Positions 20,581 to 56,442 of a stretch of 64,000 nt of DNA are shown here, in pieces. The stretch spans positions 62,001 to 126,000 of the forward strand of contig OZ025806.1 in assembly GCA_964019425.1 (NCBI GenBank), written 5' to 3'. The position numbers and the translations under genes are program-made. Position 1 is the first letter of the stretch. Each line of letters starts with the position of its first letter. Source of the DNA: Flectonema sp. DT1601 (lineage: Eukaryota). Under the pieces are notes generated by a model. It worked only from the letters and a program-made list of their open reading frames with translations, did no database searches and was not told the DNA's origin.

Positions 20581-21048
20581 CTACTTCTCGCACTCAACTT
20601 CACCAGAGGAACCTTTTTTGATTTCCGCCTGGCAAGCAAGTCGGCGATCACCAGCATCTCCAGCAAAGAATGCTGTCTCTGGATCAGTGAGTGAATTAAG
20701 AAGGTTACCACCTTTGTTAACATCGACTACACAAGTTCCACAAGTTCCTTCAATACAACTAAATTGAATTCCCTGCTCTTCACAGAATGGATGAATCTTT
20801 TGATCATTTCCGGAAGTATCGAAGTCTTTAGTCTCACCGTCAACTGTTAACTTTACACAACACTTTCCTGATCCGAGTTCTCGTAGCATTTGAGACACTC
20901 TCCCTGTTGGTGCTGTGGCTGTTCCCATTTTCAAGGATTCGTTCATCAGCAAACTACCAACAGATCCACCAGCCTGTACTCCTCTCATTGCAATCGCTGG
21001 GACTGACGTGCTCTTTGAGAATCCAGCCAGTGAAGGAACGGCTGCCAT
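20581..21048 (-). CDS. 2Fe-2S ferredoxin with ~60-aa N-terminal extension
   Basis: FSCIEGTCGTC (Cx4Cx2C) plus RRLACQ fourth ligand. Confidence 0.92.
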   Translation of the reverse strand: MAAVPSLAGFSKSTSVPAIAMRGVQAGGSVGSLLMNESLKMGTATAPTGRVSQMLRELGSGKCCVKLTVDGETKDFDTSGNDQKIHPFCEEQGIQFSCIEGTCGTCVVDVNKGGNLLNSLTDPETAFFAGDAGDRRLACQAEIKKGSSGEVECEK

Positions 21049-21742: not shown

Positions 21743-22522
21743 TTACTCGGTCTTCTTCTGGTGAAGTCCGCACTCCTTCTCGGCGGCGGTCTCCCACCAC
21801 CAACGTCCCTCACGCTCGTGCTGTCCTGGAAGAGTAGGTCTAGTACATGGCTCACATCCAATGCTGACGAATCCCTTGGAGTGAAGCTGGTTGTATGGAG
21901 CACCAGTAGTTCTAATCTGTCCCCAGACGTCTTCCTTTGATACGCTTGACAAAGGGTTGTATTTTACAAGGTTTCCACCTCTTCCTGGGAAGACTGGGTC
22001 CTTCTGAACAACTGGAAGGTTAGTTCTGGTAACAGACTGGTCCTGTCTAACTCCAGTAATCCAAGCATCAAGAGATGACAACTTCTTCTTAAGTGGTCCA
22101 ACCTTACGAACACCACAGCACTCAGCGTGACCATCCTTGTAGAATGAGAACATACCCTTCTCCTGAACCAAGCTCTGGGTCTGATCAGCATCTGGGAAGG
22201 TGTACTCGATCTTAATTTTGTAGTGGTCCTCAACAGCCTGGAACAACTGGTAGGTTTCTGAGTGAAGTCTTCCAGTGTCAAGGGAGAAGACACGGAATGG
22301 CTTTCCAGTCTGGTGAGCCAACTCAATCAACAATACATCCTCAGCTCCTGAGAAACTGATGCAAACCTCCTCGTGGTCTGCGAATGCCTTTGCTACGATG
22401 TCAACAGGTTTCCAGTCCTTCATCTCCTCTGCGAGGTTGGCGAAGTCAGTTTGGAAACGAACCTGCTGTTGTCCTCTGAACGCCGATCTGGCAACGGAAG
22501 GAAGAACTCTGCGCATGGCCAT
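21743..22522 (-). CDS. cysH: APS (adenylylsulfate) reductase, CysH family, 4Fe-4S type, with mitochondrial-type presequence
   Basis: [42 protein letters not shown]; Arg-rich, acid-free N-terminus [23 protein letters not shown]. Confidence 0.95.
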
Positions 22523-24414: not shown

Positions 24415-27400
24415 CTATTCATCCCACGTGAATAACTCCTTTTCAACAACAAACGAAGTACTGCTCCCAACCCATCTGGTTTGTCTTTCATAGCACTGCG
24501 GTGGTTGTTTACAATGAGATGGTGCGGAGGTATCATTGAAAACAGCAGACCAGTTTACCGAATAGTTTTGATCATGAAGAGTAGACAGCAGGACTTTAAA
24601 CATTCTTTCTTCATCTTTATCGCGATGCATAGTTACCATCGGTGATACTGAAGTATTCTCATAAATAGATTTCGACAGCACCGGGTGAGGTGATATTTCT
24701 GTAAAGTGAGTCACTCCATTCTCAGCTGCCAATGCCGTCGCTGAGCTGAAGTCAACTGTGCTAGTTATTTGACTTGACCAGTACTGAATGTCAGTGACAG
24801 GATTCATCTGCTTAGACATCGAAGTAGAGAACATATCAATATTTGGGTACTTTGGAAATCCAAAACTACCCTCACTTGTTACTTCCCTTTCTAACTCTGC
24901 CGCCTGGGCCTTCATCTGCCTGCTGTGAAAGGCGTAGTCGACCTTTAGTTGTTTATATTGAATTCCATTATCGTCTGCTCGCTTCTTTGCTTTTTCCAAT
25001 TCTACGTCACACCCGGACAGTACGATGTTTAAGTTCGTGTTCCGAGATGCAACATCAAGTTCGGTTCCCGCACATAAGAGTTTTTCATCTGACGGTGAAT
25101 TTAAGTCAAACGAAATCATGGATCCGTTGCCAGTCATTTTTTGCATGACGACAGAGCGAATGTAGATGAGAGTGACAGCCGATTGTAATGTTATCGAACC
25201 GCTGACGACAGCTGCGGATATCTCTCCAAGCGAATGACCAATAACACAATCTGGAGTGATCCCAAATGAGTGTAGTAGTTCTATTGTAGCCAAGTGAAGA
25301 GCAAATAATACCGGTTGTGAGATAGCTGTGTTGTTTAATTCACTGTCTTCTAATTCACAAGTAAACTGATCCATAATACCACCTGGTAAACAAGAGATCA
25401 AACAGCTACTTTTAAATCGCGATCCGAGTTTTTTCGACGTTGCTGAAAACAAGTCTGAAATAAGTTGGACCTTATCTCTAAAGACGGGATACTTCTGAAG
25501 AAGCCTCCTTCCCATTCCACACCATTGAGGACCTTGACCAGAGAAAACAAAGCAGAGTTTGTTTTTGTGTAATGGTCTTCTTTGTTCTGATCTCTTGACT
25601 AATGAACTTAACAACTCTTCTCTACTAAACCCGACAGCAGAATATCTAAAGTGTTGGTGTTGTGAGCGGAGTAATAGCGATCGAGACAGAGATTGTAATT
25701 TAGTGTCATCAGTGGATCGAACCAACGCTGCAACAGCTTGTTGCTGCTGATACAACATCGAACTATTACTGTGAGAGACAGGGATCACGACTGGTGGCCG
25801 CGAAAAGTTTTCATTAGAAGTGCTTTTCTTCGATTTCTTAGGAGCCTCGCACATTACAACGTGACAGTTGGTCCCTCCGAATCCAAAACTCGACACGCCA
25901 GCAGCTAACGTCTTTGATGGATTAGGCCAAGCAGAACCAACCTTCTGAAGGATGTCGTCAACAAACGTCGCATGTTCATTTGGAGTTTTGTAGTTCACAG
26001 AAGGAGGTAGTTTTCTATTATACAAAGACAGACAAACTTTAATAAGACCCGTGATACCAGCAGCAGCTTCAGCGTGTCCCGTATTACTCTTGACTGAACC
26101 GATTCTGAAGTTTCCTGAAGACAGATGTTGTTCACCAAAAACACTTTTGATCGCCTCCAACTCAATTGGATCTCCTAAAGGAGTTCCTGTTCCATGAGCT
26201 TCAATGTATTGGATTGCACTGCTATCGGTGGATGCATTTAGTAGTGCTTGCTTAATACAATTGCGTTGAGATGTTTGGTTCGGAGCAGTGATTCCATTTG
26301 TCTTACCGTCTTGGTTAATATTCGATCCGCGTATCACGGAATAGATTCTGTCGTTGTCAGATATTGCTTTCGATAATTTCTTTATTACTATCATTCCAGC
26401 ACCTTCAGATCGGCAGTAGCCGTTGGCGGAGTTATCGAAGGTGTTACACTTTCCGGTTTCACTTAAAAAGTTTGAATTTTTAAAAGAATTTGACGCCTCT
26501 GGAGTCAGCATCAAATTAACACCTCCGACAACTGCGTGTTCACAGTCGCCGTCTCTCACTGCTGCACACGCTTCATGAACAGCAACTAAGGAACTACTGC
26601 AAGCAGTATCAACACTCCTTACTGGTCCAGTCACCTGAAGGAACTTAGCAATTTGAGCGCTAGCATTCGACTTTGAGTTATGTTCGATTCCGACAAACGG
26701 TGCTTTCTCAGAGCAAATTTGCTGATATTCGCTGTGTGATATTCCAACAAACACACCTGTCTTTGAGCTTCCCTTCGACAGCATGTCTGGAGTGATGGCA
26801 GCGTCGAGAAGTGCTTCGTGAGTGACTTCCAATAACATCCGATGCTGAGGATCAGTACAGGAAGCTTCCTCGAGTGACATTCCGAAGACGTTGTTGTCAA
26901 ATTTCATTACTTTCTCGTTGCTTAAGAATGAACCGAGTTTGAAATTTGGACCTTCGCTGTCATCCCACTCAGGCCTCCCAGGAGGTACTTCTCTGAGATT
27001 AGTCCCCTTTCCTGTTTTGAGTAAATCCCAAAACTGATCAGGTGTGTCAGCTGAGGCAACTCTACAACCAATTCCAACGATGGCAATATCAGAGGGAGGG
27101 TGGAGTTCTTTTTCTGAAACCATTTCTGAAATCGGTTTAGTGACCAGTGCCTCCACTCTCTCAGAAATAGCTGATGTGGTTATCGTAGGCGGTGATCGGC
27201 AAATTAACTCATCATCAAAGTGAGTTACTGCTAATTGAGAACTCAGCGTCTTCTTCCCTCCCGCAGACACCACTGGTCTCGGAGTAGCTGCAGGGCTGAC
27301 CTGCGGAGTGAAAAATACAGTTTCGCAATCTACGTCGTCAGAATCCAACATAACTCTCAGTTGTGATGAAACATTCTTACTACAAACATTACGTAAAGGT

Positions 27401-30400
27401 TTACCTGGATGAAGTGGTGGCACTAGTGATGTTGATTCTTTCAATTCAATATTTGTTGTGTACTTCGCAAGTAGTTCCCATGAGCAATTAGAATCCTTCT
27501 CACAGAGTAATTTATATTCTTCTTTTGAAGCGTTTCTTTGAATCTTTCCACTCGATGTTTTACAGATACTCCTGGCTGGGATGAGGATGACTTCAATAGG
27601 AGCAATACCATGAATGACACAAAGATGATGAGAAATATCTTTTGCTAAAGTACTAAGATTAACTGAAGCAGTTGAAACACGATCTTGATCCACTTCACAA
27701 ATTATGATGTAGTTACCACTTTCTGTTGACTCAAACGCAGCGCTGCATCCCTTTCGTAGTACATTGCTAACAGTTTCTGCGGTAGCTTCAAAATCCTGAG
27801 GATAGTACTTAACACCATTAATGTTTATTATGTCTTTACTACGACCACATATAAAGACTTCTCCTCCAGGAAGTATAAATCCGAGGTCACCTGTTCTGAG
27901 AAATCTTTTCCCATCTAAAATATTTTGAAATATTTCCTCAGTCGTTGTTTTGTTATTCCAATAACCGGATGCTACTGTTGGACCGCTAACTATGATTTCA
28001 CCAACAGAGTAGGGGGGTACTTCGATAAACGTTTCAGGGTCAACACAACGAACATCATTATCTAACCACTTAACACCTTGCGATACTATTGAACTATACT
28101 TCGATGTTTTAATATCTTCGTCTGTGGCGTCCACTACCTTTCCTCTTGAAAGGGATTCGCTGTTAAGAAGTATTTGTGTTGGTTCCATTCTCACACACTT
28201 GTTCGCTATTATCAAAGTTGATTCCGCAAGTCCATAACCAGGATAAAACGTTGACGATTTAAAAGATGGGAACTCCCTACAAAAATGTTTCGCCGTTGAT
28301 ATCTTAACAGGTTCTGCTCCACAGAAAGCTATCCTCCAGGATGACAGGTCGCATTGTTCCTTTTCTTCTTTTGTACATTTCCTCGCAGTCAAGTCGTAGG
28401 CAAAGTTCGGTCCTCCCGAGAAAGTTCCCTTATACTTAGTCATTGCCTTCACCCATCGATATGGTTTTTGTAAAAACAACTCAGGGCTCATCAAGTACAA
28501 AGGGAATCCTAAATACACAGGACACAGGATACCAGCGATTAGACCTAAGTCGTGGAACTCTGGACACCAGGAAACTCCTACTTCGTTTTCATCCATTTCA
28601 CCAGCGACTCGGAAGGTTTCGAGATTGAAAAGAAGATTGAAATGTGTTACCATCACACCTTTTGGAGCTGATGTAGAACCAGAAGTGTATTGCAAGAAGG
28701 CGATATCATCAGCCGCAACGCTTACCTGGTTCCAGTCGGAGGCGAGGTTTGCCGACAATTCATCAGTCGCTACCAGCGGGATGGATGCAAGTTGTGGAAT
28801 CTGGTCGGCCAGTACCTGCGCCATTTCCTTTATCTCTTTAGTAGTAGCAATCGCAGTCGGTTTACAATCTTCAATGATACCGAGCAGCCTCGGTAACAGT
28901 CTCGCCAACCTCGCAGGATGAGGAGGATAACTCGGAACTGCAACTGCTCCCATCATCAAACATCCAAAGAACGATGTCACGAATTCTAAATTCTGAGGAT
29001 ACAATAACAGAACTCTATCTCCCTTCTTAACACCATGAGATGAAAGACCTTGAGCAATAGATTGAGACTTAGTGAGAAGTTGATTGTAGTTTAGACTCAC
29101 GTCTTCTATTTCACCATTCTTAAGACTAGTGAAAGCATGTCTTTTGGGATGTTTTGCTGCTCTCCAGATTAGCACTTCAGCGGGGGAGCAGAATTTTTCT
29201 AACGGAGGAGTGCCGTCAAATGCCGCCAGTCGTTCCTTGCTGTATGCTAGTTCCATACTTTGTGCCTTCAGCTTAGCCAAAGCAACGGGTGTTGGTCGGT
29301 GTGAGAATTTTCTAGCCTCTGTAGGATCTGTTGGTAAATGTTTTACCTCATCGTTGTAGTGTTGTTTCCAATGAAATAACGTAAAGGACTCTAATTCACC
29401 AGAACAGAAGGCGATCCGAGTGGCATTTCTTTGAATCTTACCACTAGTTGTCTTACAGATATTTCCACGAGATAAAAGTATCATCTGAGATACTTTGATA
29501 CCATGAACTTTATAAACAGTATCAACAGCGAGTTTACACTTGTCTGAGAGATCAGGTGCTTTGGAGAATGCATCGTCGATTTCCTGAGCAATAATAACTT
29601 GTTGTTCGGAAGAAGTCTCGTCATCGATTGCGAATGCGGCTACGCTGCCGGGTTTGAATGATTTATCAGTCGATTCAGTTGTCCACTCTAAATCGTGAGG
29701 ATAAATATTAACACCGTTAACAATAATAACATCCTTACACCTTCCAGTTATGAATATCTCTCCGTCAGTAGTCATGAATCCTAAGTCACCAGTTTTTAAA
29801 TATTTACCTCTCAGTCCAATCAGGTTAGACGTGTCATCACCAGGTAACACTCCACCGAATATGTCATTTGTGATTTCAGGTTTACCCCAATAGCCGTGTG
29901 CAACTGTTGGTCCTTTGACCCAGATCTCTCCCACGTGATTAGGAGGGAGTGATAAACCTGTAGTAGTGTTGACTATTTGAATAGTGTTGTCTAACCAAGA
30001 CCATCCTTGAGATACAATTGATCGATACTTGTCTGATTCAATGTCAGTTGTGTTTGCCTCAACAGCAACTCCATTCTCAAGAAGATCTGCAGTCTTTGCT
30101 AAGAAGTGTGACGGTCTACTTTGGGCAAAGTTATTCGCTATTATTAAAGTTGATTCCGCAAGTCCATAACCAGGATAAAATGTCGTTTGTCTAAAAGATG
30201 GGAACTCTGCATGAAATCTCCTGGCTGTTGCCATCTTAACAGGCTCTGCTCCACAGAAAGCTATCCTCCAGGATGACAGGTCGCATTGTTCCTTTTCTTC
30301 TTTTGTACATTTCCTCGCAGTCAAGTCGTAGGCAAAGTTCGGTCCTCCCGAGAAAGTTCCCTTATACTTAGTCATTGCCTTCACCCATCGATATGGTTTT

Positions 30401-32202
30401 TGTAAAAACAACTCAGGGCTCATCAAGTACAAAGGGAATCCTAAATACACAGGACACAGGATACCAGCGATTAGACCTAAGTCGTGGAACTCTGGACACC
30501 AGGAAACTCCTACTTCGTTTTCATCCATTTCACCAGCGACTCGGAATATTTCTAAGTTATAAATAAGATTAAAGTGTGATACCATTACTCCCTTTGGAGC
30601 TGATGTAGAACCAGAAGTGTATTGCAAGAAGGCGATATCATCTTTTTTAAGATCTATCTGCGTCCACTCTGCTGCAAGAGACGGTTGGATTTCATCAGTC
30701 GCTACCAGAGGGATGGATGCCAGTTGTGGAATCTGATCGGAAAGAACGTTCGCCATTTCCTTTATCTCTTTAGTAGTAGCAATCGCTGTCGGTTTACAAT
30801 CTTCAATGATACCGAGCAGCCTCGGTAACAGTCTCGCCAACCTCGCAGGATGAGGAGGATAACTCGGAACTGCAACTGCTCCCATCATCAAACATCCAAA
30901 GAACGATGTCACGAATTCTAAATTCTGAGGATACAATAACAGAACTCTATCTCCCTTCTTAACACCATGAGATGAAAGACCTTGAGCAATAGATTGAGAC
31001 TTAGTGAGAAGTTGATTGTAGTTTAGACTCACGTCTTCTATTTCACCATTCTTAAGACTAGTGAAAGCATGTCTTTTGGGATGTTTTGCTGCTCTCCAGA
31101 TTAGCACTTCAGCGGGGGAGCAGAATTTTTCTAACGGAGGAGTGCCATCAAATGCCGCCAGTCGTTCTCTACCGTAAGCGAGTTTATAGGCCGCGTCTCT
31201 ACGGTTTTTTATGTGTTCAGGAGTTGGTCGAGTTGAGTCTTCAAAGATTTCCTCCACAGTCAAAGTCTTTGGAACGTATTCCTCAACCTTTGGCTCTTCT
31301 CCAACTGGTAGTGGAGGAGGGTTTAATTTCATTACTGTTTCAACGTATTGGTTCTCAGCATCTGTTTTACTTATGTTTGAATATTTGTTCCATTCCATCC
31401 ATTTCTTTTGTCCAACCAAATCAAACATCCCAGGCTTTGTAGTATTGCAAACACCAACAGTTGATCTTTTATACAATCCATACAACTTTAGTCGTACTTC
31501 TTGAGAAGGTTCGGTGGAGACTAATTTAAGTCTCTTTACAGAGTCGTCAAAAGTAACGGTTTCCGACTGCAGTTGTGGTGGGTTCAAACTGAGTACGAGT
31601 TTGATGTATTTTTCTTCAGCAGTTTGTTTTGTCATGTCAGCATATTGGGTCCAGGAATTCCATTTTTTCTGATCAACGAGTTCAAACATTCCAGGCCTTG
31701 GAGTATTACACACACCCACAGTTGTTTGTTTGTATAACCCGTACAGCTGTAGTCGAACTTCTTGGGAAGGTGGAGGATCGACAAGCTTAACACGAGAGAC
31801 TGCCTCTGAAAATGAAATATCGCTCACCATTTTATTCATATCTTCTACTGGAGTGTATTGTCGCACTAAATCAACGTATTTGTAAGCGGCTAGTTTAGTT
31901 GTTGTTCCTTGTAGTTTCGACCAGGCATCCCATTTTGCTCCTCCGACGTAGTCGAGGATGACATTTTTAGGTCTTTCGGTATTAATATCACCGACTGTTG
32001 CTTGTTTGTACAAGGCGTAGAGTTGTAGTTTATCGTTGTTACCGATGCCTGATATTTCTTTTATTGTTGTTGATGCTCTGTTGAATGTGTTGTCATCGAC
32101 TGTGTAGTCACTTACATCATCATCGGAGATTTCAACAGGCGGTTGTTTCTCTGGTGTTGCTGCTGGAATTCCAAACGACAGTTTTCTCAATAAGCCAATC
32201 AT
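24415..32202 (-). CDS. Type I PKS/FAS-like megasynthase: ACBP x3 - FAAL - FAAL - degenerate ACP-like linker - KS - AT (2595 aa)
   Basis: ACBP motifs LQLYALYKQATVGD...KWDAW, LQLYGLYKQTTVG...KKWNSW, LKLYGLYKRSTVG...KKWMEW (~31320-32090). Two FAAL domains with FLQYTSGSTSAPKGV, HDLGLI, YGLAESTL, TGDLGF, KT(T/S)SGKIQR (~29370-31155 and ~27470-29220). KS with DTACSSS, HGTGT, GHAEAAAG (~25840-27090). AT with FSGQG, GHSLG, YAFHS (~24660-25560). Confidence 0.95.
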   Translation of the reverse strand: MIGLLRKLSFGIPAATPEKQPPVEISDDDVSDYTVDDNTFNRASTTIKEISGIGNNDKLQLYALYKQATVGDINTERPKNVILDYVGGAKWDAWSKLQGTTTKLAAYKYVDLVRQYTPVEDMNKMVSDISFSEAVSRVKLVDPPPSQEVRLQLYGLYKQTTVGVCNTPRPGMFELVDQKKWNSWTQYADMTKQTAEEKYIKLVLSLNPPQLQSETVTFDDSVKRLKLVSTEPSQEVRLKLYGLYKRSTVGVCNTTKPGMFDLVGQKKWMEWNKYSNISKTDAENQYVETVMKLNPPPLPVGEEPKVEEYVPKTLTVEEIFEDSTRPTPEHIKNRRDAAYKLAYGRERLAAFDGTPPLEKFCSPAEVLIWRAAKHPKRHAFTSLKNGEIEDVSLNYNQLLTKSQSIAQGLSSHGVKKGDRVLLLYPQNLEFVTSFFGCLMMGAVAVPSYPPHPARLARLLPRLLGIIEDCKPTAIATTKEIKEMANVLSDQIPQLASIPLVATDEIQPSLAAEWTQIDLKKDDIAFLQYTSGSTSAPKGVMVSHFNLIYNLEIFRVAGEMDENEVGVSWCPEFHDLGLIAGILCPVYLGFPLYLMSPELFLQKPYRWVKAMTKYKGTFSGGPNFAYDLTARKCTKEEKEQCDLSSWRIAFCGAEPVKMATARRFHAEFPSFRQTTFYPGYGLAESTLIIANNFAQSRPSHFLAKTADLLENGVAVEANTTDIESDKYRSIVSQGWSWLDNTIQIVNTTTGLSLPPNHVGEIWVKGPTVAHGYWGKPEITNDIFGGVLPGDDTSNLIGLRGKYLKTGDLGFMTTDGEIFITGRCKDVIIVNGVNIYPHDLEWTTESTDKSFKPGSVAAFAIDDETSSEQQVIIAQEIDDAFSKAPDLSDKCKLAVDTVYKVHGIKVSQMILLSRGNICKTTSGKIQRNATRIAFCSGELESFTLFHWKQHYNDEVKHLPTDPTEARKFSHRPTPVALAKLKAQSMELAYSKERLAAFDGTPPLEKFCSPAEVLIWRAAKHPKRHAFTSLKNGEIEDVSLNYNQLLTKSQSIAQGLSSHGVKKGDRVLLLYPQNLEFVTSFFGCLMMGAVAVPSYPPHPARLARLLPRLLGIIEDCKPTAIATTKEIKEMAQVLADQIPQLASIPLVATDELSANLASDWNQVSVAADDIAFLQYTSGSTSAPKGVMVTHFNLLFNLETFRVAGEMDENEVGVSWCPEFHDLGLIAGILCPVYLGFPLYLMSPELFLQKPYRWVKAMTKYKGTFSGGPNFAYDLTARKCTKEEKEQCDLSSWRIAFCGAEPVKISTAKHFCREFPSFKSSTFYPGYGLAESTLIIANKCVRMEPTQILLNSESLSRGKVVDATDEDIKTSKYSSIVSQGVKWLDNDVRCVDPETFIEVPPYSVGEIIVSGPTVASGYWNNKTTTEEIFQNILDGKRFLRTGDLGFILPGGEVFICGRSKDIININGVKYYPQDFEATAETVSNVLRKGCSAAFESTESGNYIIICEVDQDRVSTASVNLSTLAKDISHHLCVIHGIAPIEVILIPARSICKTSSGKIQRNASKEEYKLLCEKDSNCSWELLAKYTTNIELKESTSLVPPLHPGKPLRNVCSKNVSSQLRVMLDSDDVDCETVFFTPQVSPAATPRPVVSAGGKKTLSSQLAVTHFDDELICRSPPTITTSAISERVEALVTKPISEMVSEKELHPPSDIAIVGIGCRVASADTPDQFWDLLKTGKGTNLREVPPGRPEWDDSEGPNFKLGSFLSNEKVMKFDNNVFGMSLEEASCTDPQHRMLLEVTHEALLDAAITPDMLSKGSSKTGVFVGISHSEYQQICSEKAPFVGIEHNSKSNASAQIAKFLQVTGPVRSVDTACSSSLVAVHEACAAVRDGDCEHAVVGGVNLMLTPEASNSFKNSNFLSETGKCNTFDNSANGYCRSEGAGMIVIKKLSKAISDNDRIYSVIRGSNINQDGKTNGITAPNQTSQRNCIKQALLNASTDSSAIQYIEAHGTGTPLGDPIELEAIKSVFGEQHLSSGNFRIGSVKSNTGHAEAAAGITGLIKVCLSLYNRKLPPSVNYKTPNEHATFVDDILQKVGSAWPNPSKTLAAGVSSFGFGGTNCHVVMCEAPKKSKKSTSNENFSRPPVVIPVSHSNSSMLYQQQQAVAALVRSTDDTKLQSLSRSLLLRSQHQHFRYSAVGFSREELLSSLVKRSEQRRPLHKNKLCFVFSGQGPQWCGMGRRLLQKYPVFRDKVQLISDLFSATSKKLGSRFKSSCLISCLPGGIMDQFTCELEDSELNNTAISQPVLFALHLATIELLHSFGITPDCVIGHSLGEISAAVVSGSITLQSAVTLIYIRSVVMQKMTGNGSMISFDLNSPSDEKLLCAGTELDVASRNTNLNIVLSGCDVELEKAKKRADDNGIQYKQLKVDYAFHSRQMKAQAAELEREVTSEGSFGFPKYPNIDMFSTSMSKQMNPVTDIQYWSSQITSTVDFSSATALAAENGVTHFTEISPHPVLSKSIYENTSVSPMVTMHRDKDEERMFKVLLSTLHDQNYSVNWSAVFNDTSAPSHCKQPPQCYERQTRWVGSSTSFVVEKELFTWDE
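28200..31165 (-). repeat. Internal duplication: ~1-kb near-identical blocks at ~28200-29235 and ~30130-31165 (offset about 1932 nt)
   Basis: Long identical DNA and protein stretches (e.g. ERLAAFDGTPPLEKFCSPAEVLIWRAAKHPKRHAF... occurs twice). Confidence 0.95.
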
Positions 32203-32908
32203 ATGTGTTGTTATTGATGTGTAGTTTCTGCGTGTAAGATGCAGATGGGGGGATGGGTTTTTTTTTTTTCTTTTTTTTTTGGGTGGTTACGATGATTCTG
32301 GATGAAAACAAAATAAAAATTTTAATTTCAAAAAAAAAAAAGACCAAACTACTCCAACACTCGCGAAGGAAAAAAAAAAAAAAAAAAAGTTATCTCATTT
32401 GTCACAGTATAAATTTTTTGTTTCTTCTTTTTTTTTCGACAGCAGTGTCGCAATTAAGTCCCCCCAAGGGATAATCGCCCCCCCGTATTAACATGGGTGG
32501 GCATACGGTATGGCACAACGTGCAATGTTAAAATACATAAATAAATAAAAAAAATTCTTTTTTAGACTTCTGGTGAGGCTTGGAAATCAGCTTTTTTTTC
32601 TTTTTTTTTTTTTTTTTTTCTATAAATTTGTGTAGTTTGTCGTGCACAAAATTAAACAGTTAACTGTCTATTACTCAAAACAAAAAAAAAAAAAGTTGTT
32701 GTCATTTTTTGTGGAGGAAAAAAAAATATAGTACAGAAAAAGAAAAACCGTTCAAGGCCCTACCTGTAAATCATCATCAGTCTGAAGGAAAACAAACACT
32801 ATGGCTGTTTCTAGGCGGATTAGACAAGAGGAAGAAGTCACGTCTGTAAACACATCACCTTTGAGTGTGGAAGAGGTTCCTCAGAGCCAGTTAAAAGAGA
32901 AATGGCTT

Positions 32909-35206
32909 TTAGGGCCCAACAGGATTCCAACTCCCAACGTCTTTGGGAACAGAACAAAATCCTTTCTCATAAATAGGACCCTTCGATCCAGTGAGGAGTT
33001 TTCCTGAAAACCATTTTTGGTAGACTGCGAGCGCCTGTTCTGCGTTCTGAGCTGCGTAGAAACAATTACTGAGCCACTCTGATCCTTGAATGACACCTTC
33101 TTTAGTATTGCGAGCATACCTCGCAGAGATCTTTTGCTCCCAATAATCTTCATTTCCGAATAAGATCATCGGAGTTGGCGGTGTTGTTCCGACTTTACGA
33201 CGGACCTCCTCGAGACCAAATTCAAAGTCAGTTCCGATCCCGCCGAGTAGGAAGATGGGGAAGTCTAGTTGAAAGTCTGATTGTCTCTCAACTAGTTTTT
33301 CTAATTTATAAGTCATCCAAACATCAACAAAAGGATTCCTCTTTTGTTCATTTACAGTCACGGTTCCTTTTTTAGAAAAATCACAAATATTTCCACAACT
33401 GAGAACACCACATTGCTTCGCCACTCGATTCCCGACTTCCATAGCACCAGGTCCGCCACCAGTTACAATAGCCAGAGGCTTTCCTGGATGCAAGAGAGGG
33501 TTTTGAACGTGGTTTCGCATATCTTTTACTCCTCCTATTAATTTCATGAGCTCTGACTCTAAGTCACCTTGTTTAAGGTTCGATCCGTACACACCAAATG
33601 CAGTAGCACCCAAGTAATCTGAAATCAAGTCTGTTGGATAGACTGGTACAAAGGCTCCGTGATCTCTTCCTTTCTTATGAACGTATTTAAACATCTTCTC
33701 TTGGTCAGGACAGATGTTAAAAACTTCAACTCCGAACAGGGACAAGTCATACAAAAGAGATCGATCTTCTTGTGATAAGAAACAACCATTCTCTTTTGAA
33801 CAGGTTTGAAAATAAATTCTTTTAAGGCAAGCGGACACCGTATCAGAGAGAAGTAAATTTTTAAGAACCGGAGAAGGAAGATATCTCGTGAACAAGACGC
33901 CATGTGATGAAATATCTCCAATTGATATTGCCTTAAGGATTCCATAGCAAGCTTGTTGTCTGACGTATTCTCTTACGGAAGCTCTTTGTTTCTCTGGTTC
34001 AGTAATCCCTGGATAGTCTCCTTTAACTGGAGTAGTTGATATCCAGTCAGAAGCTTTCAAGTTCTCAAGTTGTTCTTTCTTAACAACATAACAACTCATT
34101 TGAGAACCCTGATTTGCTTCGCTCATTTTTAAAAATGATTTAAATATTAAACGAGGATTGCTATCAAGGACTCCCTTGAACTCATCTTCAAAGTATAAAT
34201 GTTCCCTCCAAGGCTCCAGTTGGTATATTTCAAATGGTAATTCAGTCAAGTACTGAGCTGAACTTCCATAAAAACAGAATGTTCGACCCTCTTCCTCATC
34301 TATCCTAAATGAGTTGACGGGTTCCAAGATGTTACTTGTGCAGCATTGGATTCCCTCAGGGAGAAGGTCTACAGCTATTCTTGCATAACAATTTCTAAGT
34401 ATGAGTGGATACGTTCTTACCATTAGCATTTGATGTGGAACTGCTACTCTACTTCGATCACAGTCGTGGTGTTGATGGAGTCGAATGATGTGTTTGCATT
34501 GAATCTTCTTCTTTAAACATCTTCCAATAGCTGGTAGTGATCCGTGAATATCTCCATCGTATCTAACAACTCCTTCTCGTAATTTAACTTTAAAAATTAC
34601 TCTTCCGTCGATGTTGTTGCAGCTCCAATGACCTTCGTCTCCGAGATGAACCAGAGGCACTCCCTTTCTATCAACTCTGGTTATCAATCTGGTTAAATAA
34701 TTAGAATTAGTTACACGTCTGGCAACGTCTCTGCAAAATAATTTTCCAACCTGAGTACCGAGAGTCACTTCATCTAGAGCTAAGATTCCAAGTGGTGAAA
34801 TTGCTATCAAATCAACTGTTAGTTTACAAGAGAGGTTATCATGATTGAAAATGATGTCGTGCCCTGTTCCATTCACTCCAAGTTGAGACAGAGTACTCTT
34901 CAAATTAAAAACAACAGAAACGTGATAACTTGAATTCCATCCAGCGAATCTCGATGAAATACAACTAATTACTATCACACAAGATAATGATTTCCGATCT
35001 CGACTTCTTTCAAAACTTGTTACTTCTCCATCTGGGGTTGCTAAATCCCAAGCTTTATCATTCTCAATAAAGTGTCTTCTCGCATTTGTATAACTAATAG
35101 ATCGCTCTCCAGGGACACTTGCTAAGTCTGGATGGCATCCGTACGGTCGATACTTATGAGCTGTTATAGGAGGTGGAGTACAGTCTCGGTATCGACTAGG
35201 AGTCAT
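32909..35206 (-). CDS. Large LOG/SLOG-fold protein, apparently a full-length homolog of the chlamydial CT387-type family
   Basis: C-terminal LOG motifs VYGS, VTGGGPGAMEVGN, LVERQ, LGGIGTDFE. N-terminal blocks (DLATPDG, FNLKSTLSQLG, GVVRYDGDIHG, NILEP, GSEWLSNCFY) match my recollection of the chlamydial family. Confidence 0.85.
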   Translation of the reverse strand: MTPSRYRDCTPPPITAHKYRPYGCHPDLASVPGERSISYTNARRHFIENDKAWDLATPDGEVTSFERSRDRKSLSCVIVISCISSRFAGWNSSYHVSVVFNLKSTLSQLGVNGTGHDIIFNHDNLSCKLTVDLIAISPLGILALDEVTLGTQVGKLFCRDVARRVTNSNYLTRLITRVDRKGVPLVHLGDEGHWSCNNIDGRVIFKVKLREGVVRYDGDIHGSLPAIGRCLKKKIQCKHIIRLHQHHDCDRSRVAVPHQMLMVRTYPLILRNCYARIAVDLLPEGIQCCTSNILEPVNSFRIDEEEGRTFCFYGSSAQYLTELPFEIYQLEPWREHLYFEDEFKGVLDSNPRLIFKSFLKMSEANQGSQMSCYVVKKEQLENLKASDWISTTPVKGDYPGITEPEKQRASVREYVRQQACYGILKAISIGDISSHGVLFTRYLPSPVLKNLLLSDTVSACLKRIYFQTCSKENGCFLSQEDRSLLYDLSLFGVEVFNICPDQEKMFKYVHKKGRDHGAFVPVYPTDLISDYLGATAFGVYGSNLKQGDLESELMKLIGGVKDMRNHVQNPLLHPGKPLAIVTGGGPGAMEVGNRVAKQCGVLSCGNICDFSKKGTVTVNEQKRNPFVDVWMTYKLEKLVERQSDFQLDFPIFLLGGIGTDFEFGLEEVRRKVGTTPPTPMILFGNEDYWEQKISARYARNTKEGVIQGSEWLSNCFYAAQNAEQALAVYQKWFSGKLLTGSKGPIYEKGFCSVPKDVGSWNPVGP

Positions 35207-38586: not shown

Positions 38587-41500
38587 TTATATAGAGTGCT
38601 TTCTGACAGGTGGATAAGGTTGTGAATATCTGTAGTAGTCATCTCGTGGTGTTTCCATATCAGGATCTGGAATCCTAAAGTCGGCCAGAGGAAGTGAGTC
38701 CCGACTGTTTCGATATTTTATAGCGCCGATGGTAGCTAAAACCCCACAAAGAATCCCTCCGACAATGAAGGCGGCGGTTACATAACTCGGCTTCCAGCTA
38801 TCGTCATTTTCAGTTACGGTTTCTTCTGCAGTCGGAACACCAACACTTTCAGGAGCACCACTACTATTAGGAGCACCACCACCTGGAAGTGGTGGCCAAG
38901 TATATGGTTTTGGTGACTTACCGTCTGGGGACTTCGTAACATCTCCGGTTGGAGATTTCGACTCAGGAATAGAAGTAAAAGGTACTAAAGTTCTCTGAGG
39001 CCTATTTGGATCAAGAGTTGGTACTTTGGTATTGCTAGTCGGTGACTCACTCGGAGACTTACTCACTGCTGCTGTTGGAGAAGTGGTCGCATCCACAGTT
39101 GGAGAATCCGTACCAGCGGGTGTGGAGGGGCTAATCGCTGGGGCGTTGGTTCGCACGGCAACAGTCGGGGAATCAGTAGTACCCCCAGCCGCTGGAACGT
39201 TGGTTCTCACCACGGCAGTCGGTGAATTAGTACCTGTGGGCGTAACACCAATTGCTGGGACAGTGGTTCCCACTGCTGTTGGAGAATCAGTACCTACGGG
39301 CGATGCGCTTGCAGGTGGGGCAATCACCACAATTGGAGAATCAGTAGCACCTGCAGGTGTAGTGGTAGTCGCTGGAACGTCAGTTCTCACAACAGTCGGA
39401 GACTCAGTAACACCAACGGTGAGAGGTGAATTAGTCACAGCTGATGGTGAGCCAGTCACAGCTAAAGGTGAGTTAGTCACAGCTAACGGTGAGTCAGTCA
39501 CAGCTGATGGTGAGTTAGTCACAGCTAACGGTGAGTCAGTCACAGCTGATGGTGAGTTAGTCACAGCTAACGGTGAGTCAGTCACAGCTGACGGTGAGTT
39601 CGTCACAACTGACGGTGAGTTAGTCACAACTGACGGTGAGTTAGTCACAGCTGAGCTAGTCGGTACTTCAGTTACAACAGGAGCGGAGGGAACACCAGTC
39701 GGGATAGCCGTAGGAACACCAGTCGGGATAGCCGTAGGAACACCAGTCGGGGTAGCCGTAGGAACACCAGTCGGGGTAGCCGTAGGAACACCAGTCGGGA
39801 TAGCCGTAGGAACACCAGTCGGGATAGCCGTAGGAACACCAGTCGGGATAGCCGTAGGAACACCAGTCGGGGTAGCCGTAGGAACACCAGTCGGGGTAGC
39901 CGTAGGAACACCAGTCGGGACAGCCGTAGGAACACTAGTCGGGATAGCCGTAGGAACACTAGTCGGGGTAGCCGTGGGAACACTAGTCGGAGTATTCGTT
40001 GAACAACTTCCAACTAATGTGATGGGAAATGACATTCTCCCAGTACATCTTTCCATTGTAGACAACTTCCCGCTACCAGTTGCTAGTGCCAGATTGAAGT
40101 CACCTTCAGAAAGTTTTATATCGTTTGAGTTCCCCGTCTCCAACAGTCTCCAAAACACAAGACTAACAGAACCACGTGAAGTAGTAATACTTTCTGTTAT
40201 GATATCAATTGTTGGGGAGCTACGAGAAGGAACATCTGTTGGAAATCCGTTCAGCTTTTGCATATCGAAAACCTCACTTTCTGTAGTGTCCCACGCCATA
40301 GGGAATATACCTAACATGTTATTATTATCGGTGACGGTTCTGAAGCCAGCAGCTCCCCAGAATTGATTATTGCCAGTGTTTGTAACTTGGAATCGAATGG
40401 CTTCCTCACCAGAATCAGATTCAGTACCAAATTCATACGACAGAGTTATTGAAATATTAGTAACAGCAACACTAGTCGGTACTGATCCAGGACAAGGTTT
40501 AAATACTCTTGGTGAGGATGGAGCTGTATTTGGTGATGGTGTTCTTGGAAGCTCTCGTGAAGACCTAAACTTATTACGAGGAATATCATCAGGAATTGGT
40601 TGAGTTGTGAAGACTGGTCCCTTTCCGAAATCTACTCCATTTTCTTGGACTTGATTCCAAGCCTCAGCAAAGAATTTAAAAAACAGCTTCTTATCATCTT
40701 CCATCTCCCTCATTACAACCATTAACCTAATATCAGCTCTTAATATCATATCGATGGGTAAGACGGTAAATCTCGGTGAAGGCCCACCGAAATATTGTAA
40801 ATCAGTTCCTCTCGTTGTTGCTGTAGATGGTCCCCATGGACCGTTTGCCATGTTCTTAAAGTATTCGCAATCAAAATGAAAAACATTTATTGTCCAATTA
40901 CCTTCATTCCCAGAGACCTTTTTATGCATTGCTCCTACAGTGTGAGCTCCCATTAAGGCTACAATTTTGTGGAATCCGTCTACGTCAGTTTCAGTACTTA
41001 TTCCCATTTCAGCAAATTTTTTAAATAAATAATTCCTCGTGTGTTCATGCGGTAAGTTGTCATCTTTTCTTCTCTTTTGAGGAAGTCTTTCATCATCTCC
41101 AACGCAGAGAGTTGGAAGGTCGGCATCACTAAAATCTTTTCGACCAGGTCTCCATACGATATTCGGACCCCCCATAAACTCGATTGCAACGTTACCAGCA
41201 AGCTGATATAAATCAGCGTACGTAATAAAGGGATGAGAAGTTTTTACTACTTCCAAAGCAAGAGTAGCGACATCCAGTCCTTTGTTGTCTTTTAGACCAA
41301 GTTCAGGATTGCCTCTGACGCAGCCACCGTTGCTTCCTCCGATTGGAATTATTCGAGGATCGAATGTTGATAACCCATGAAACGCCAATCTAAGTAACAG
41401 AGGTCTGAATGGAGGATCTTTCGATTGTATTAATTGCACTAAAGATTCAACTACAGGAAGGTACTTAGATTTAGCACTTTCAGCAATCAGTGCTCCTGGT

Positions 41501-41607
41501 GTTGTCAATGGTGTCGTCGGCACTGGAAGCCGCTGTGTCCTCTGACAATCCACCAATAGCAGCAACAGCAGCAGGATTATCGATACCAACAAGGTGTGTT
41601 GTTGCAT
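38587..41607 (-). CDS. Type I membrane heme peroxidase (APX/CcP-like domain) + DOMON-like domain + mucin-like stalk + TM helix
   Basis: First ATG at 41607 (MQQHTLLVSIILLLLLLLVDC signal peptide); LLRLAFH, GGSNG, TYADLYQLAG, PGRKD, LMGAHTVG; DOMON-like WGAAGF...M...VFWRLLETG..D; PT-rich repeats; TM YVTAAFIVGGILCGVLATIGAI followed by KYRNSR. Confidence 0.9.
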   Translation of the reverse strand: MQQHTLLVSIILLLLLLLVDCQRTQRLPVPTTPLTTPGALIAESAKSKYLPVVESLVQLIQSKDPPFRPLLLRLAFHGLSTFDPRIIPIGGSNGGCVRGNPELGLKDNKGLDVATLALEVVKTSHPFITYADLYQLAGNVAIEFMGGPNIVWRPGRKDFSDADLPTLCVGDDERLPQKRRKDDNLPHEHTRNYLFKKFAEMGISTETDVDGFHKIVALMGAHTVGAMHKKVSGNEGNWTINVFHFDCEYFKNMANGPWGPSTATTRGTDLQYFGGPSPRFTVLPIDMILRADIRLMVVMREMEDDKKLFFKFFAEAWNQVQENGVDFGKGPVFTTQPIPDDIPRNKFRSSRELPRTPSPNTAPSSPRVFKPCPGSVPTSVAVTNISITLSYEFGTESDSGEEAIRFQVTNTGNNQFWGAAGFRTVTDNNNMLGIFPMAWDTTESEVFDMQKLNGFPTDVPSRSSPTIDIITESITTSRGSVSLVFWRLLETGNSNDIKLSEGDFNLALATGSGKLSTMERCTGRMSFPITLVGSCSTNTPTSVPTATPTSVPTAIPTSVPTAVPTGVPTATPTGVPTATPTGVPTAIPTGVPTAIPTGVPTAIPTGVPTATPTGVPTATPTGVPTAIPTGVPTAIPTGVPSAPVVTEVPTSSAVTNSPSVVTNSPSVVTNSPSAVTDSPLAVTNSPSAVTDSPLAVTNSPSAVTDSPLAVTNSPLAVTGSPSAVTNSPLTVGVTESPTVVRTDVPATTTTPAGATDSPIVVIAPPASASPVGTDSPTAVGTTVPAIGVTPTGTNSPTAVVRTNVPAAGGTTDSPTVAVRTNAPAISPSTPAGTDSPTVDATTSPTAAVSKSPSESPTSNTKVPTLDPNRPQRTLVPFTSIPESKSPTGDVTKSPDGKSPKPYTWPPLPGGGAPNSSGAPESVGVPTAEETVTENDDSWKPSYVTAAFIVGGILCGVLATIGAIKYRNSRDSLPLADFRIPDPDMETPRDDYYRYSQPYPPVRKHSI
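39425..39990 (-). repeat. Coding minisatellites: 24-nt (PTGVPTAI/T) x~12 and 21-nt (VTNSPSA/VTDSPLA) x~11
   Basis: gccgtaggaacaccagtcggg and ggtgagttagtcacagct repeated in tandem. Confidence 0.95.
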
Positions 41608-41851
41608 ATTATAAAGTAAGTAATCTGGAGAAGACAATAAATTATTTTGATCAACAAGTTCAATAAATATTTAATTCTCGCGCCTAAACAAGTCAGGCGG
41701 GTGAACGCAATCAGTACTCTGAAAGTAGGCTAGAATAGGAAATATTAGAGAGGAATATCACACACCGACAGTGCGAGGTAAAAGAAAGTATCTGTAAAAG
41801 CTTGCTAGGGATAATTTTATGCACAACTCTTTGCCGCTTCTTAACCTGACC

Positions 41852-55219: not shown

Positions 55220-56442
55220 TGACAGAAATCAACTAAAAGTCAACAGAATAATAATACATACGGCCAAAAGGTCAGTGTCTGAGTACTTTCCGGTTCCGTA
55301 ACTGTCAACGTGGATTGAGAGAGGCTCAGCAACACCGATAGCGTAAGCCAACTGAACCAAACATCTCTTTGCGAGTCCGGCGGCAACGATCGACTTGGCG
55401 ATCCAACGTCCGGCGTAGCACGCGGATCTGTCAACCTTGCTAGGATCCTTTCCTGAGAACGCACCTCCTCCGTGTGCTCCCCATCCACCGTAGGTGTCTA
55501 CGATAATCTTTCTTCCGGTGAGACCAGCGTCAGCGTTTGGTCCTCCGAGAACGAATCTGCCAGATGGGTTCAAGTGGTAGATGGTCTGTTTGTTTAGTTT
55601 GGTTTGGTTTGGTTTGGTTTGCTCGGCAGAACAGAACAGAACAGAAGTGAAGAGAGAAAGTGATAGAAAAGGGGAAAGTCGGAATTCCAAAGGGAAAGGA
55701 TACCTCCACTTCCTAGTTTCCGCAAATGATTTAAGAAAAGAATAGAAAAGAAACACACCTTGTCATCAAGGTACTTGGCTGGGATGACTTCCAAGCAAAG
55801 GGCCTTGAGGTCCTCTCTGATCTTCTCGTTGGTGACTTCCTCAGTGTGCTGACTCGAGATCAAGATGCAGTGAACTCTAAGTGGAGTCAACAATCTCTTA
55901 CCGTTGCTCTCATCGATCTCGTACTCAACAGTTACCTGAGTCTTGGCATCAGGTCTAGCCCATGCGAGGCTTCCGTTGTTTCTCTTCTCAGAGTGCTTCT
56001 GGGCCAATTGACGGGCCAATTCGTATGACAAAGGCATGAGAGTCTCGGTCTCATCAGTCGCGTATCCGAACATAAGTCCCTGGTCACCAGCTCCAAGTGC
56101 TCCCTCATCATCGTACTGGGTGCACTGACCAATGTCAGGTGACTGTTGCTCAATCGCAACTAACACGTTGCAGGTCTTGAAGTCAAATCCCTTCTCACAG
56201 TGATCGTATCCGATCTTCTGAACAGTCGCACGAAGGATGCTCTGGTAGTCGATAACGGCCTTGGTGGTGATCTCTCCGAACACCATAACCAATCCGGTCT
56301 TACAGCAAGACTCACATGCGACCTTCGACATTGGGTCGGCGGCAAGGCACGCGTCAAGGACGGCGTCAGAGAACTGATCGCACATCTTGTCAGGGTGACC
56401 CTCAGTCACGTGCTCCGAGGAGAACATAAAAGTACGTGGCAT
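54946..56442 (-). CDS. MAT: S-adenosylmethionine synthetase (394 aa); join(56442..55759, 55585..55262, 55122..54946)
   Basis: [47 protein letters not shown]; third exon [35 protein letters not shown]...FTWEKP. Confidence 0.97.
55123..55261 (-). other. MAT intron 2, 139 nt, phase 0, contains a (CAT)n microsatellite
   Basis: GCC|GTATGT...CAATAAAACAG|ATC. Confidence 0.92.
55586..55758 (-). other. MAT intron 1, 173 nt, phase 0
   Basis: AAG|GTGTGT...(CCAAA)n CTAAACAAACAG|ACC. Confidence 0.92.

Follow-up and report, generated by a model that had tools for sequence, protein, structure and literature searches.

Fatty acyl-AMP ligases (FAALs), like type I ketosynthases (KS), are held to depend on a phosphopantetheinylated acyl carrier protein (ACP), which normally forms part of the same polypeptide or is encoded in the same gene cluster. 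In the window, i.e. the whole 64-kb stretch of DNA that was analysed, one gene joins two FAALs to a KS and an acyltransferase (AT) behind three acyl-CoA-binding (ACBP) domains, and no carrier domain is recognizable between them. This raises the question of what holds the acyl chain on its way from the ligases to the KS. The answer proposed here, at a probability of approximately 0.48, is that the protein may salvage and elongate fatty acids with the help of a free ACP, most probably that of the mitochondrion.

A complete gene with an ACP-less domain order

The gene is a single open reading frame on the minus strand, running from position 32202 to 24415 of the window, with 2595 codons and no internal stops. 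The domain order was found to be leader-ACBP-ACBP-ACBP-FAAL-FAAL-linker-KS-AT-tail, then stop, as follows.

32298..32392 (approximate limits), minus strand: poly-T tract ending in AG, read from the sequence approximately 95 nt before the ATG; candidate trans-splice acceptor
32152..32202, minus strand: N-terminal leader without acidic residues, aa 1-17; mitochondrial presequence or membrane helix candidate
31849..32091, minus strand: ACBP domain 1, aa 38-118 (Pfam PF00887 and alignment)
31585..31824, minus strand: ACBP domain 2, aa 127-206 (Pfam PF00887; best PDB match the ACBP of human ECI2, 2CQU, E 4e-21)
31324..31560, minus strand: ACBP domain 3, aa 215-293 (Pfam PF00887)
31126..31233, minus strand: family-specific helical extension before FAAL 1, aa 324-359; three short helices predicted, pLDDT 42-81
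29368..31125, minus strand: FAAL 1, aa 360-945; has the catalytic motifs as well as the elements that block CoA
29194..29301, minus strand: the FAAL extension of this family again, before FAAL 2, aa 968-1003 (alignment across the family)
27508..29193, minus strand: FAAL 2, aa 1004-1565; motifs present, N-terminal half a near-duplicate of FAAL 1
27094..27507, minus strand: FAAL-KS linker, aa 1566-1703; the ACP site in bacterial homologues, here Ser/Thr/Pro-rich with no ACP signal
27292..27345, minus strand: acidic tract and F-F-T-P-x-x-S-P, aa 1620-1637, common to Hemistasia; candidate phospho-FFAT or ACP relic
25843..27093, minus strand: KS, aa 1704-2120; Cys1868-His2003-His2043
25561..25842, minus strand: KS-AT linker domain, aa 2121-2214 (Pfam)
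24568..25560, minus strand: AT, aa 2215-2545; GHSLG (Ser2324) and YAFHS
24415..24567, minus strand: post-AT linker and acidic-aromatic tail, then TAG; a similar tail closes every full-length orthologue

A Pfam search of the protein returned three ACBP domains (E 4e-72), two AMP-binding domains, the N- and C-terminal KS domains, the KS-AT linker and Acyl_transf_1, and no PP-binding, KR, DH, ER or TE domain at E<=1. Together with the catalytic motifs, this confirms the ACBPx3-FAAL-FAAL-KS-AT order and the lack of KR, DH, ER and TE that had been proposed in an initial annotation. No Pfam match at E<=10 was obtained for the C-terminal tail or for any of the three inter-domain linkers. The host genome carries cis introns; GC3 was even (0.32-0.40) across all segments of the reading frame and homopolymers reached at most 6, which gave no hint of a read-through intron, and an unremoved intron in the linker was rejected on composition. 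Both start and stop are backed by homologues, the Hemistasia protein having a similar leader and ending in ...GEWDD compared to ...FTWDE here. The end at 24415, which had been put forward as the true end with no downstream exons, is shared by transcriptome orthologues. A decayed DH exon 3' of the stop (G-R-I-V-I-P-P in one downstream frame) was rejected since the frames are stop-ridden and the orthologue ends coincide. No description of this architecture was found in the literature searched, where most subscription journals lay outside coverage; in the initial annotation, too, no described PKS with N-terminal ACBP repeats was known. The ids of three orthologue transcripts were absent from 6 supplements of PMC7052976.

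Orthologues form one family in two euglenozoan groups

Orthologues were found in Hemistasia, Apiculatamorpha, Papus and one metagenome, and all end at the matching point. Since four independent sources have the same architecture and end point, the gene is not a truncation. The family appears to belong to diplonemids and early-branching kinetoplastids (prokinetoplastids), which are predatory flagellates. Its members form one clade in the FAAL tree and likewise in the KS tree, both trees divide the family by host group, and catalytic residues are kept at 48-57% identity among members. These trees indicate that the family has a single origin. Descent from bacterial tandem-FAAL PKSs was unsupported, as those FAALs sit elsewhere in the tree. 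In the 4 of 64 parts of the metagenome contigs that were scanned, at least 78 loci were found at 37-46% identity, all of them short of the identity seen within the family and all lacking an ACBP. No relative was found in viral contigs, and the ESM Atlas held no ACP-less FAAL-KS cluster; its best match (0.77) was a bacterial ligase-thiolase fusion, which is a lead only.

Loss of the carrier domain

The phosphopantetheine motif G-x-[DH]-S occurs nowhere in the 2595-aa protein. An ACP-linker HMM was built from 40 bacterial FAAL-KS linkers and tried on 40 held-out ones, all 40 of which scored at least 44 bits; the linker of the window scored -1.4 bits, identical to the shuffle median of -1.4. A second HMM, for which the full set of 80 bacterial linkers was used, gave a best E value of only 0.28 against the 1160 six-frame segments (at least 30 aa) of the window. 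In the linker, an ACP relic seen by eye was discarded because its HMM score lay within the shuffles. Neither Pfam nor the custom HMM matched an ACP in any family member. Moreover, the linker is 40-47 residues long in three orthologues, compared to 98 for the shortest of 83 other linkers, which is too short for an ACP; these three have lost it outright. The missing acyl carrier domain noted in the initial annotation was thus borne out in the protein, in the six-frame window and in the family. With no ACP on the same polypeptide, the protein is classed by its domains as a non-canonical type I PKS/FAS module.

The acidic tract in the linker was scored with the phospho-FFAT algorithm of Table EV4 in PMC7705450, where the criterion is a score below 3 in a disordered cytosolic segment. 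The score here was 3.5, which is weak (reached by 373 of 5000 shuffles), compared to 1.0 in the Hemistasia linker (1 of 5000 shuffles). The motif was absent from the three prokinetoplastid-type linkers (scores 7-8.5). An AlphaFold model of the FAAL 2 C-domain-linker-KS-AT segment was poor overall (mean pLDDT 46.7, 5 sequences); its linker was coil at pLDDT 23-30, to which little weight is given as parts of the KS were low too.

Both ligases retain the features of FAALs

Motifs A3, A5, A7 and A10 are present in both FAALs (YTSGST, YGLAE, TGDL and KT(T/S)SGKI, respectively). The canonical CoA pocket of FAALs is blocked by W224, M231 and F279 (EcFAAL numbers) and a FAAL-specific helix, and removal of such elements gives FAALs CoA-ligase activity (PMC8460268). 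When these positions were located by spacing from W224, rather than by alignment to the 3PBK sequence, W224, P226, the FAAL-specific helix 251-259 and F279 were found to be kept in all eight FAAL copies of the family. The M231 position was Leu in 8/8 copies compared to 15 of 419 others, 30 further sequences without the anchor motif being left out of this count. Family-wide changes concentrate around the FAAL pockets, M231 to Leu among them, and no new invariant Arg or Lys was gained in the family FAALs. P226 of the proline-lined alternative pantetheine pocket is present in 8/8 copies, and the YPPHP loop is invariant. The insertion region could be aligned with that of the Ols FAAL, the top structure matches were FAALs, and the profile matches were to NF038339 and NF040607, both under their own cut-offs. 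By motifs, blocked CoA pocket, pantetheine pocket and insertion, both domains appear to fit the FAAL class.

The FAALs are 35-46% identical to bacterial FAALs. The helical extension precedes each intact FAAL in the family, and the best-matching bacterial stretches mostly begin downstream of it. Over 1060 bp, the N-terminal half of FAAL 2 shows 92% DNA identity to FAAL 1, and two stretches of 359 and 302 bp match perfectly. Tandem FAALs are also present in Hemistasia and in Apiculatamorpha isoforms, and the middle FAAL of Apiculatamorpha is degenerate (20% identity).

The KS is conserved and the AT decays in part of the family

The Cys-His-His triad of the KS is intact in 5/5 members. Only one family-specific position was found in comparison with 310 other KS, none of the changes being a new invariant Arg or Lys able to grip CoA phosphates, and the KS is predicted to be conventional. 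The AT has lost its catalytic serine in 3/5 members, having decayed in the prokinetoplastid-type ones. The AT Ser and His are intact here and in Hemistasia, the two domains being 43% identical, and the AT at aa 2215-2545 is presumably malonyl-CoA-selective by motif rules. The intact KS and AT (GHSLG) reported for this locus at the outset are therefore supported by the catalytic residues. The acidic-aromatic character of the tail is kept in 5/5 full C-termini.

The ACBPs and the leader

The columns equivalent to F5, K13, L25, Y28, K32, K54 and Y73 (bovine ACBP numbering), which we take to be the acyl-CoA-binding residues, are invariant in 6/6 aligned ACBP domains, and the domains thus seem to keep the predicted binding residues. 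Outside the family, no ACBP match was found among the 488 proteins fetched. In every member with a known N-terminus, ACBP gain and ACP loss coincide. A predicted complex of ACBP domain 2, a KS dimer and CoA scored 0.18, against a mark of 0.34. Upstream of the ACBPs, similar leaders occur in three orthologues: in all four N-termini known, the first 12-21 residues are without acid and hold 2-3 basic residues, with the first acidic residue at 18, 22, 13 and 14. The leader here has 1 Arg, whereas two more distinct mitochondrial presequences encoded in the window have 4-5 Arg.

A free ACP acting in trans and the alternatives to it

In the mechanism proposed, each FAAL would make acyl-AMP and load the acyl group onto the phosphopantetheine of a holo-ACP in trans, from which it would pass to KS Cys1868. 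An intact cis AT would supply malonyl-ACP (here and in Hemistasia), and where the AT is dead (Papus and Apiculatamorpha) a separate transacylase would do so. The KS would release 3-ketoacyl-ACP, two carbons longer, and free type II reductases and dehydratase would complete the cycle. The ACBPs would bind long-chain acyl-CoA as a sensor or as a second primer feed to the KS. The sequence likeness suggests that the enzyme likely derives from a bacterial FAAL-ACP-KS-AT module whose own carrier has since been lost.

A free-standing ACP and a holo-ACP synthase, and no FAS I, are listed for Hemistasia, PhF-6 and PhM-4 in PMC7052976 Table S8, with a malonyl-CoA:ACP transacylase in PhF-6 and PhM-4 and without an entry for Hemistasia. 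A separate transacylase is thus listed only where the AT serine is lost (PhF-6 and PhM-4) and none where the AT is intact (Hemistasia), in agreement in 3/3 named hosts. The transacylase is missing in 6 of the 18 species of that table, and no homologue was seen in five of these 6, so that the match may be due to chance or detection failure. The CoA-blocking and pantetheine-tunnel features in all FAAL copies, the conventional KS and the four acid-free N-termini argue for a free ACP, and the live AT in the two diplonemid-type members makes most sense with an ACP to load. The larger share of the confidence in this proposal rests on the ACP being the mitochondrial FAS II one. Several features point the other way: the leader is Arg-poor, the strong phospho-FFAT of Hemistasia would work only in the cytosol, M231 is replaced by Leu throughout, and the ACBPs would be left accessory although their binding residues are invariant.

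In a less likely alternative, reprogrammed ligases would make acyl-CoA, or release acyl-AMP, and the tethered ACBPs would capture the product as a non-covalent carrier and present it to the KS cysteine, so that the cycle would run without any phosphopantetheinylated protein. Working in the cytosol, perhaps anchored at the ER, the KS would then use free malonyl-CoA to form 3-ketoacyl-CoA, with the AT as a fading relic. In vitro, substrates borne on CoA can be condensed by E. coli FabF. Consistent with such chemistry are the coincidence of ACBP gain with ACP loss, the invariant ACBP residues, the AT dead in 3/5 members beside a KS intact in 5/5, the changes near the FAAL pockets including M231 to Leu, the Hemistasia phospho-FFAT, and the listing of no FAS I, hence of no known cytosolic ACP, for the three named hosts (PMC7052976 Table S8). 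In contrast, W224, F279 and the FAAL-specific helix are all retained, no invariant Arg or Lys was gained in KS or FAAL, and the AT has stayed intact in two members that differ at more than half of its positions. The choice between CoA/ACBP chemistry and an ACP in trans had already been framed in the initial annotation, and the framing holds; its headline option, the CoA/ACBP system, is disfavoured by the FAAL CoA block (8/8), the conventional KS and the AT-transacylase match (3/3).

Two further explanations are improbable. In the first, the ACP-free tandem FAALs would serve lipid homeostasis by acylating something other than a thiol, for instance a glycerolipid, at a membrane contact site; the ACBPs would sense acyl-CoA, and the KS would either relay acyl groups or be a side activity. 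Dip2, a didomain of two FAAL-like units in tandem that lacks an ACP, has a degenerate second domain and acts on DAG at contact sites (PMC9342972); the degenerate middle FAAL of Apiculatamorpha and the FFAT-like motif are reminiscent of it. However, the FAALs here are far closer to bacterial ones than Dip2 is (approximately 16%), and both KS decarboxylation histidines, needless for a relay, are kept in 5/5 members. In the second, equally improbable, a type I PKS making a lipid-like metabolite would be split, with the present protein as its first subunit, docked through the acidic-aromatic tail to a partner that supplies ACP, KR, DH and a release domain. The conserved tail and a domain order matching bacterial FAAL-(FAAL)-ACP-KS-AT loading modules would fit this, but no ACP-like segment lies within the 64-kb window, one partner ACP must serve FAAL and KS both, and no transcript with at least three FAS-type domains is entered as FAS I for any of the three named hosts in PMC7052976 Table S8, a screen that also missed the present protein. 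Lastly, an assembly artefact, a truncated gene or what is left of a transferred bacterial PKS in decay, for which the perfect FAAL repeats could mislead an assembler and cis introns make further exons possible in principle, is largely refuted by the shared architecture and end point, the recurrence of tandem FAALs, the kept catalytic residues and trees that follow host groups.

Whichever carrier is used, the ACP was dropped and acyl-CoA-binding domains were gained in evolution, and the product has been retained in two euglenozoan groups that are deeply separated. Use of a free type II ACP would represent a new route of dietary fatty-acid salvage and a natural type I/type II hybrid, and an ACP-free, CoA-fed enzyme would break two rules at once and offer engineers a carrier-independent extender. 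The protein would also fill a gap in euglenozoan lipid metabolism, no FAS I having been found in the three named hosts (PMC7052976 Table S8).

Comparison with known systems

The nearest sequences and structures are those of bacterial FAAL-primed type I PKSs (FAAL-ACP-KS-AT), which likewise have a FAAL with CoA-blocking elements followed by KS-AT; the nearest solved FAAL is that of the Synechococcus olefin synthase Ols (PDB 7R7E-G). Some bacterial proteins (P0019, P0024, P0029, P0060 and P0113) have the order FAAL-FAAL-ACP-KS-AT. In contrast to these modules, the family has no ACP between FAAL and KS, nothing past the AT, between one and three ACBPs at the N-terminus and its own FAAL extension. 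Mycobacterial FadD32-Pks13 is similar in that a FAAL feeds a KS by which a long acyl chain is lengthened, and the two profile matches under cut-off, NF038339 and NF040607, also fall on this side. Unlike this family, Pks13 carries ACPs of its own together with a thioesterase, and the ligase FadD32 is not fused to it.

Opisthokont Dip2/Cmr2 also has eukaryotic tandem FAAL-like domains without ACP, one of them sometimes degenerate (PMC9342972). Dip2 is without KS, AT or ACBP and far more diverged, its DMAP-binding domain had no Pfam match in the present protein, and the family is judged by sequence identity to be a bacterial-like acquisition separate from Dip2. Human ECI2 resembles the family in having an ACBP fused to an acyl-thioester-handling protein, and ACBD5 in having an ACBP paired with an FFAT motif. 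Unlike in this family, neither is joined to a FAAL or KS. Free fatty acids are salvaged onto a stand-alone ACP for elongation by AasS, cyanobacterial Aas and plant AAE15 with type II KAS enzymes. AasS, Aas and AAE15 are single FACL-type enzymes, whereas here the proposed job would fall to fused FAALs and a type I KS-AT.

Domain architecture of the synthase and its family

The synthase was found to be encoded by a single unbroken open reading frame:

32202..24415, minus strand: ACBP x3-FAAL-FAAL-KS-AT synthase, 2595 codons

In Pfam, ACBP matched three times and AMP-binding twice, followed by a KS, a KS-AT linker and an AT. The catalytic residues of the KS (Cys1868, His2003 and His2043) and the AT (Ser2324 and His2426) were present. 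This confirms the domain order with intact KS and AT proposed in the initial annotation. No Pfam match to a carrier, reductive or release domain was found in the protein. The ACBP columns corresponding to acyl-CoA-binding residues were invariant in six of six aligned domains. FAAL1 and FAAL2 shared 92% DNA identity across a 1060-bp stretch that includes perfect runs of 359 and 302 bp. Their C-terminal protein halves, by contrast, showed just 30-54% identity per 50-column block, a pattern that fits gene conversion.

When a 5.8-billion-protein set was searched three times (each time the best 120 of about 7990 scored candidates) and 1.84 billion representatives once (best 150 matches), the same architecture was found in four further sources among the matches listed. 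Identity to the window protein was 52-57% in the FAAL and 48-52% in the KS.

Table. Family members besides the window protein (source: protein handles)
Hemistasia phaeocysticola: P0002, P0237; species name taken from the label Hpha and from PMC7052976
Apiculatamorpha spiralis: P0081, P0121
Papus ankaliazontas: P0123, P0489
Metagenome protein: P0124, N-terminus missing

ACBP copies varied among members (3, 2, 1 and 1; P0124 uncounted for its missing N-terminus). Hemistasia isoform P0237 terminates within the beginning of the second FAAL extension, and Apiculatamorpha P0121 has the order FAAL, degenerate FAAL, FAAL. Tandem FAALs recur in the family, in the window protein, Hemistasia and Apiculatamorpha. 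Both Papus isoforms carry one FAAL, which may be genuine or a transcript collapse. No ACBP occurred outside the family among the 488 fetched proteins, and no trypanosomatid, Bodo, Euglena or other diplonemid homologue was among the matches listed, from a collection that may not include all of these taxa.

Loss of the ACP and retention of most CoA-blocking elements

Among the 488 fetched proteins, 88 had a FAAL directly followed by a KS. The linker between them was at least 98 residues long in all 83 non-family proteins, and 40, 42, 47, 115 and 139 residues in the five family members. With three very long linkers left out, an HMM trained on 40 of the remaining 80 recovered all 40 held-out linkers at 44 bits or more; family linkers scored -1.4 to 3.8 bits, the window linker scoring the same as the median of its shuffles. 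When the HMM was rebuilt from all 80 linkers, it gave no match in whole family proteins and, across the window in six frames (1160 segments), no ACP (best E 0.28). No PP-binding match was found in any family member with Pfam at E<=10, and the G-x-[DH]-S motif was absent throughout the window protein. The absence of a phosphopantetheine site noticed initially held, and the ACP is really gone from the family.

CoA rejection by FAALs involves W224, M231, F279 and a FAAL-specific helix, and the ACP arm uses a proline-lined tunnel, according to PMC8460268. When mapped by spacing from W224, the CoA-blocking elements other than M231 were kept in 8 of 8 family FAAL copies; the M231 position is Leu in family copies and in just 15 of 419 others. 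Ten FAAL positions were family-specific, several lying close to the substrate pocket by our reading, as was one KS position (against 310 other KSs), and no new invariant Arg or Lys was gained in either domain. These findings suggest that the ligases are still ACP loaders and that the KS is unremodelled. CoA/ACBP chemistry without an ACP, to which the invariant ACBP columns and the lost carrier lend some weight, therefore seems rather unlikely; if true, the family would be categorically new.

A candidate free carrier in the hosts

Table S8 of PMC7052976 lists for Hemistasia, Apiculatamorpha and Papus one stand-alone ACP, holo-ACP synthase and acetyl-CoA carboxylase, and no FAS I. The mitochondrial FAS II ACP is the sole candidate carrier on record. 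The AT serine was present in the window protein and Hemistasia, with G-x-G in the other three members. Malonyl-CoA:ACP transacylase is listed in the same table for both dead-AT hosts and not for Hemistasia, and is missing from 6 of the 18 species tabulated (PMC7052976). Across these three species, this is how the transacylase should be distributed if it and the cis AT both serve to load one free ACP.

The best supported mechanism, to which we give a probability of about 0.48, is one in which the FAAL would load an acyl group onto free holo-ACP, the KS would lengthen the chain using malonyl-ACP, type II enzymes would complete the extended chain, and the ACBPs would sense acyl-CoA or feed it. 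Hemistasia is a predator that eats eukaryotes. Papus and Apiculatamorpha are likewise predators of eukaryotes, as stated in PMC7859406. Such a diet would be in keeping with a role in recovering fatty acids from prey, a link that three species cannot establish.

As to location, the four family leaders were acid-free and less rich in Arg than a pair of clearer presequences encoded in the window. The one linker motif common to the window protein and Hemistasia, picked by eye before scoring after Table EV4 of PMC7705450, had a phospho-FFAT score of 3.5 here and 1.0 in Hemistasia; roughly one in ten human proteins has a score under 3, according to that source.

A Dip2-like role (compare PMC9342972), suggested by FAALs standing without an ACP, is improbable beside a KS with its catalytic residues. 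A split PKS whose partner is unseen would account for the missing domains with equally small probability; all full family C-termini share an acidic-aromatic tail ending shortly past the post-AT linker. This common end and the similar leader of the Hemistasia orthologue make the start and stop of the window protein look genuine. The sequences of the two prokinetoplastids, both cultured on bodonid prey (PMC7052976), might conceivably be prey contamination, in which case the source would be euglenozoan all the same. An artefact is very improbable.

Origin and genomic setting

A midpoint-rooted FastTree was built from 85 of 457 FAAL domains: every family and tandem copy, the top hits, and 45 drawn at random. 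In it, the eight family copies formed one group (support 1.0), divided into window plus Hemistasia (0.98) versus the prokinetoplastid type (1.0), and repeat copies clustered by species. In a midpoint-rooted IQ-TREE of 55 of 316 KS domains, the five family KSs grouped together (SH-aLRT 100). Neither tree names a donor. Bacterial FAAL-FAAL-ACP-KS-AT proteins exist and are positioned away from the family in the FAAL tree. We infer that a bacterial FAAL-ACP-KS-AT module was acquired once, in an event predating the diplonemid/kinetoplastid split, after which the ACP and all downstream domains would have been lost and a eukaryotic ACBP gained.

Two or three tandem FAALs precede the ACP in seven bacterial-type proteins (P0005, P0019, P0024, P0029, P0060, P0113 and P0357), six of which also have KS-AT; in such proteins more than one ligase would feed a single carrier. 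Another ACP-less eukaryotic multi-FAAL, the 3878-aa algal protein P0122 (Chrysophaeum taylorii), carries acyl-CoA dehydrogenase domains alongside four FAAL-like matches, has no ACP listed, and attached to the family only weakly on a long branch.

Beyond position 4375 of the window, all ORFs with an above-cut-off family match lie on the minus strand, and the spacers hold long A/T runs. The GT-AG intron of the SAM synthetase gene demonstrates cis-splicing in this genome. The window is eukaryotic, and gene orientation, A/T spacers, this intron and both trees point to a diplonemid source. Other features were:

100-642, 2114-3118, 3197-3859, plus: the only plus-strand ORFs of the window not antisense to a gene, all within 1-4375, without Pfam match; first 4 kb GC-richer (49-55%), possibly a strand-switch region or repeat
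20581-21048, minus: 2Fe-2S ferredoxin directly downstream of the synthase, long N-terminal extension
21743-22522, minus: APS reductase directly downstream, Arg-rich mitochondrial-type leader; TIGR00424 the best match at E 4e-103, short of its cut-off
32909-35206, minus: upstream neighbour, 765 aa, no Pfam match; C-terminal part weakly matching LOG-family phosphoribohydrolase (PDB 9US2, E 5e-6; TIGR00730, E 0.002), about 570 N-terminal residues without explanation
38587-41637, minus: haem peroxidase domain, then about 700 residues without Pfam match; an antisense ORF of 446 codons overlaps it where the sequence is GC-rich
52791-54389, minus: acyl-CoA carboxylase carboxyltransferase subunit with a leader of mitochondrial type; 20 kb away from the synthase, with no evidence of a link
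55586-55758, minus: SAM synthetase GT-AG intron; probable second intron from near 55261
61299-63332, minus: 677-aa protein, weak match (E 4e-12, well short of the cut-off) to NF047640, a model of the N-terminus of myxobacterial AgmC

Comparison with known systems

Full-text literature searches, with subscription journals mostly beyond their reach, found no description of ACBP-FAAL-KS-AT without an ACP; within that literature, the initial view that no PKS with N-terminal ACBP repeats had been described was borne out. Neither ACBP nor Euglenozoa occurs in the main text of a 2026 FAAL survey (PMC12820801), a term search of PMC12055004 gave no match, and the orthologue identifiers do not appear in their source paper's readable supplements (PMC7052976). 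The window protein would work similarly to the first module of a FAAL-primed PKS, but that module requires a cis ACP and the window protein has none, which places it outside that class.
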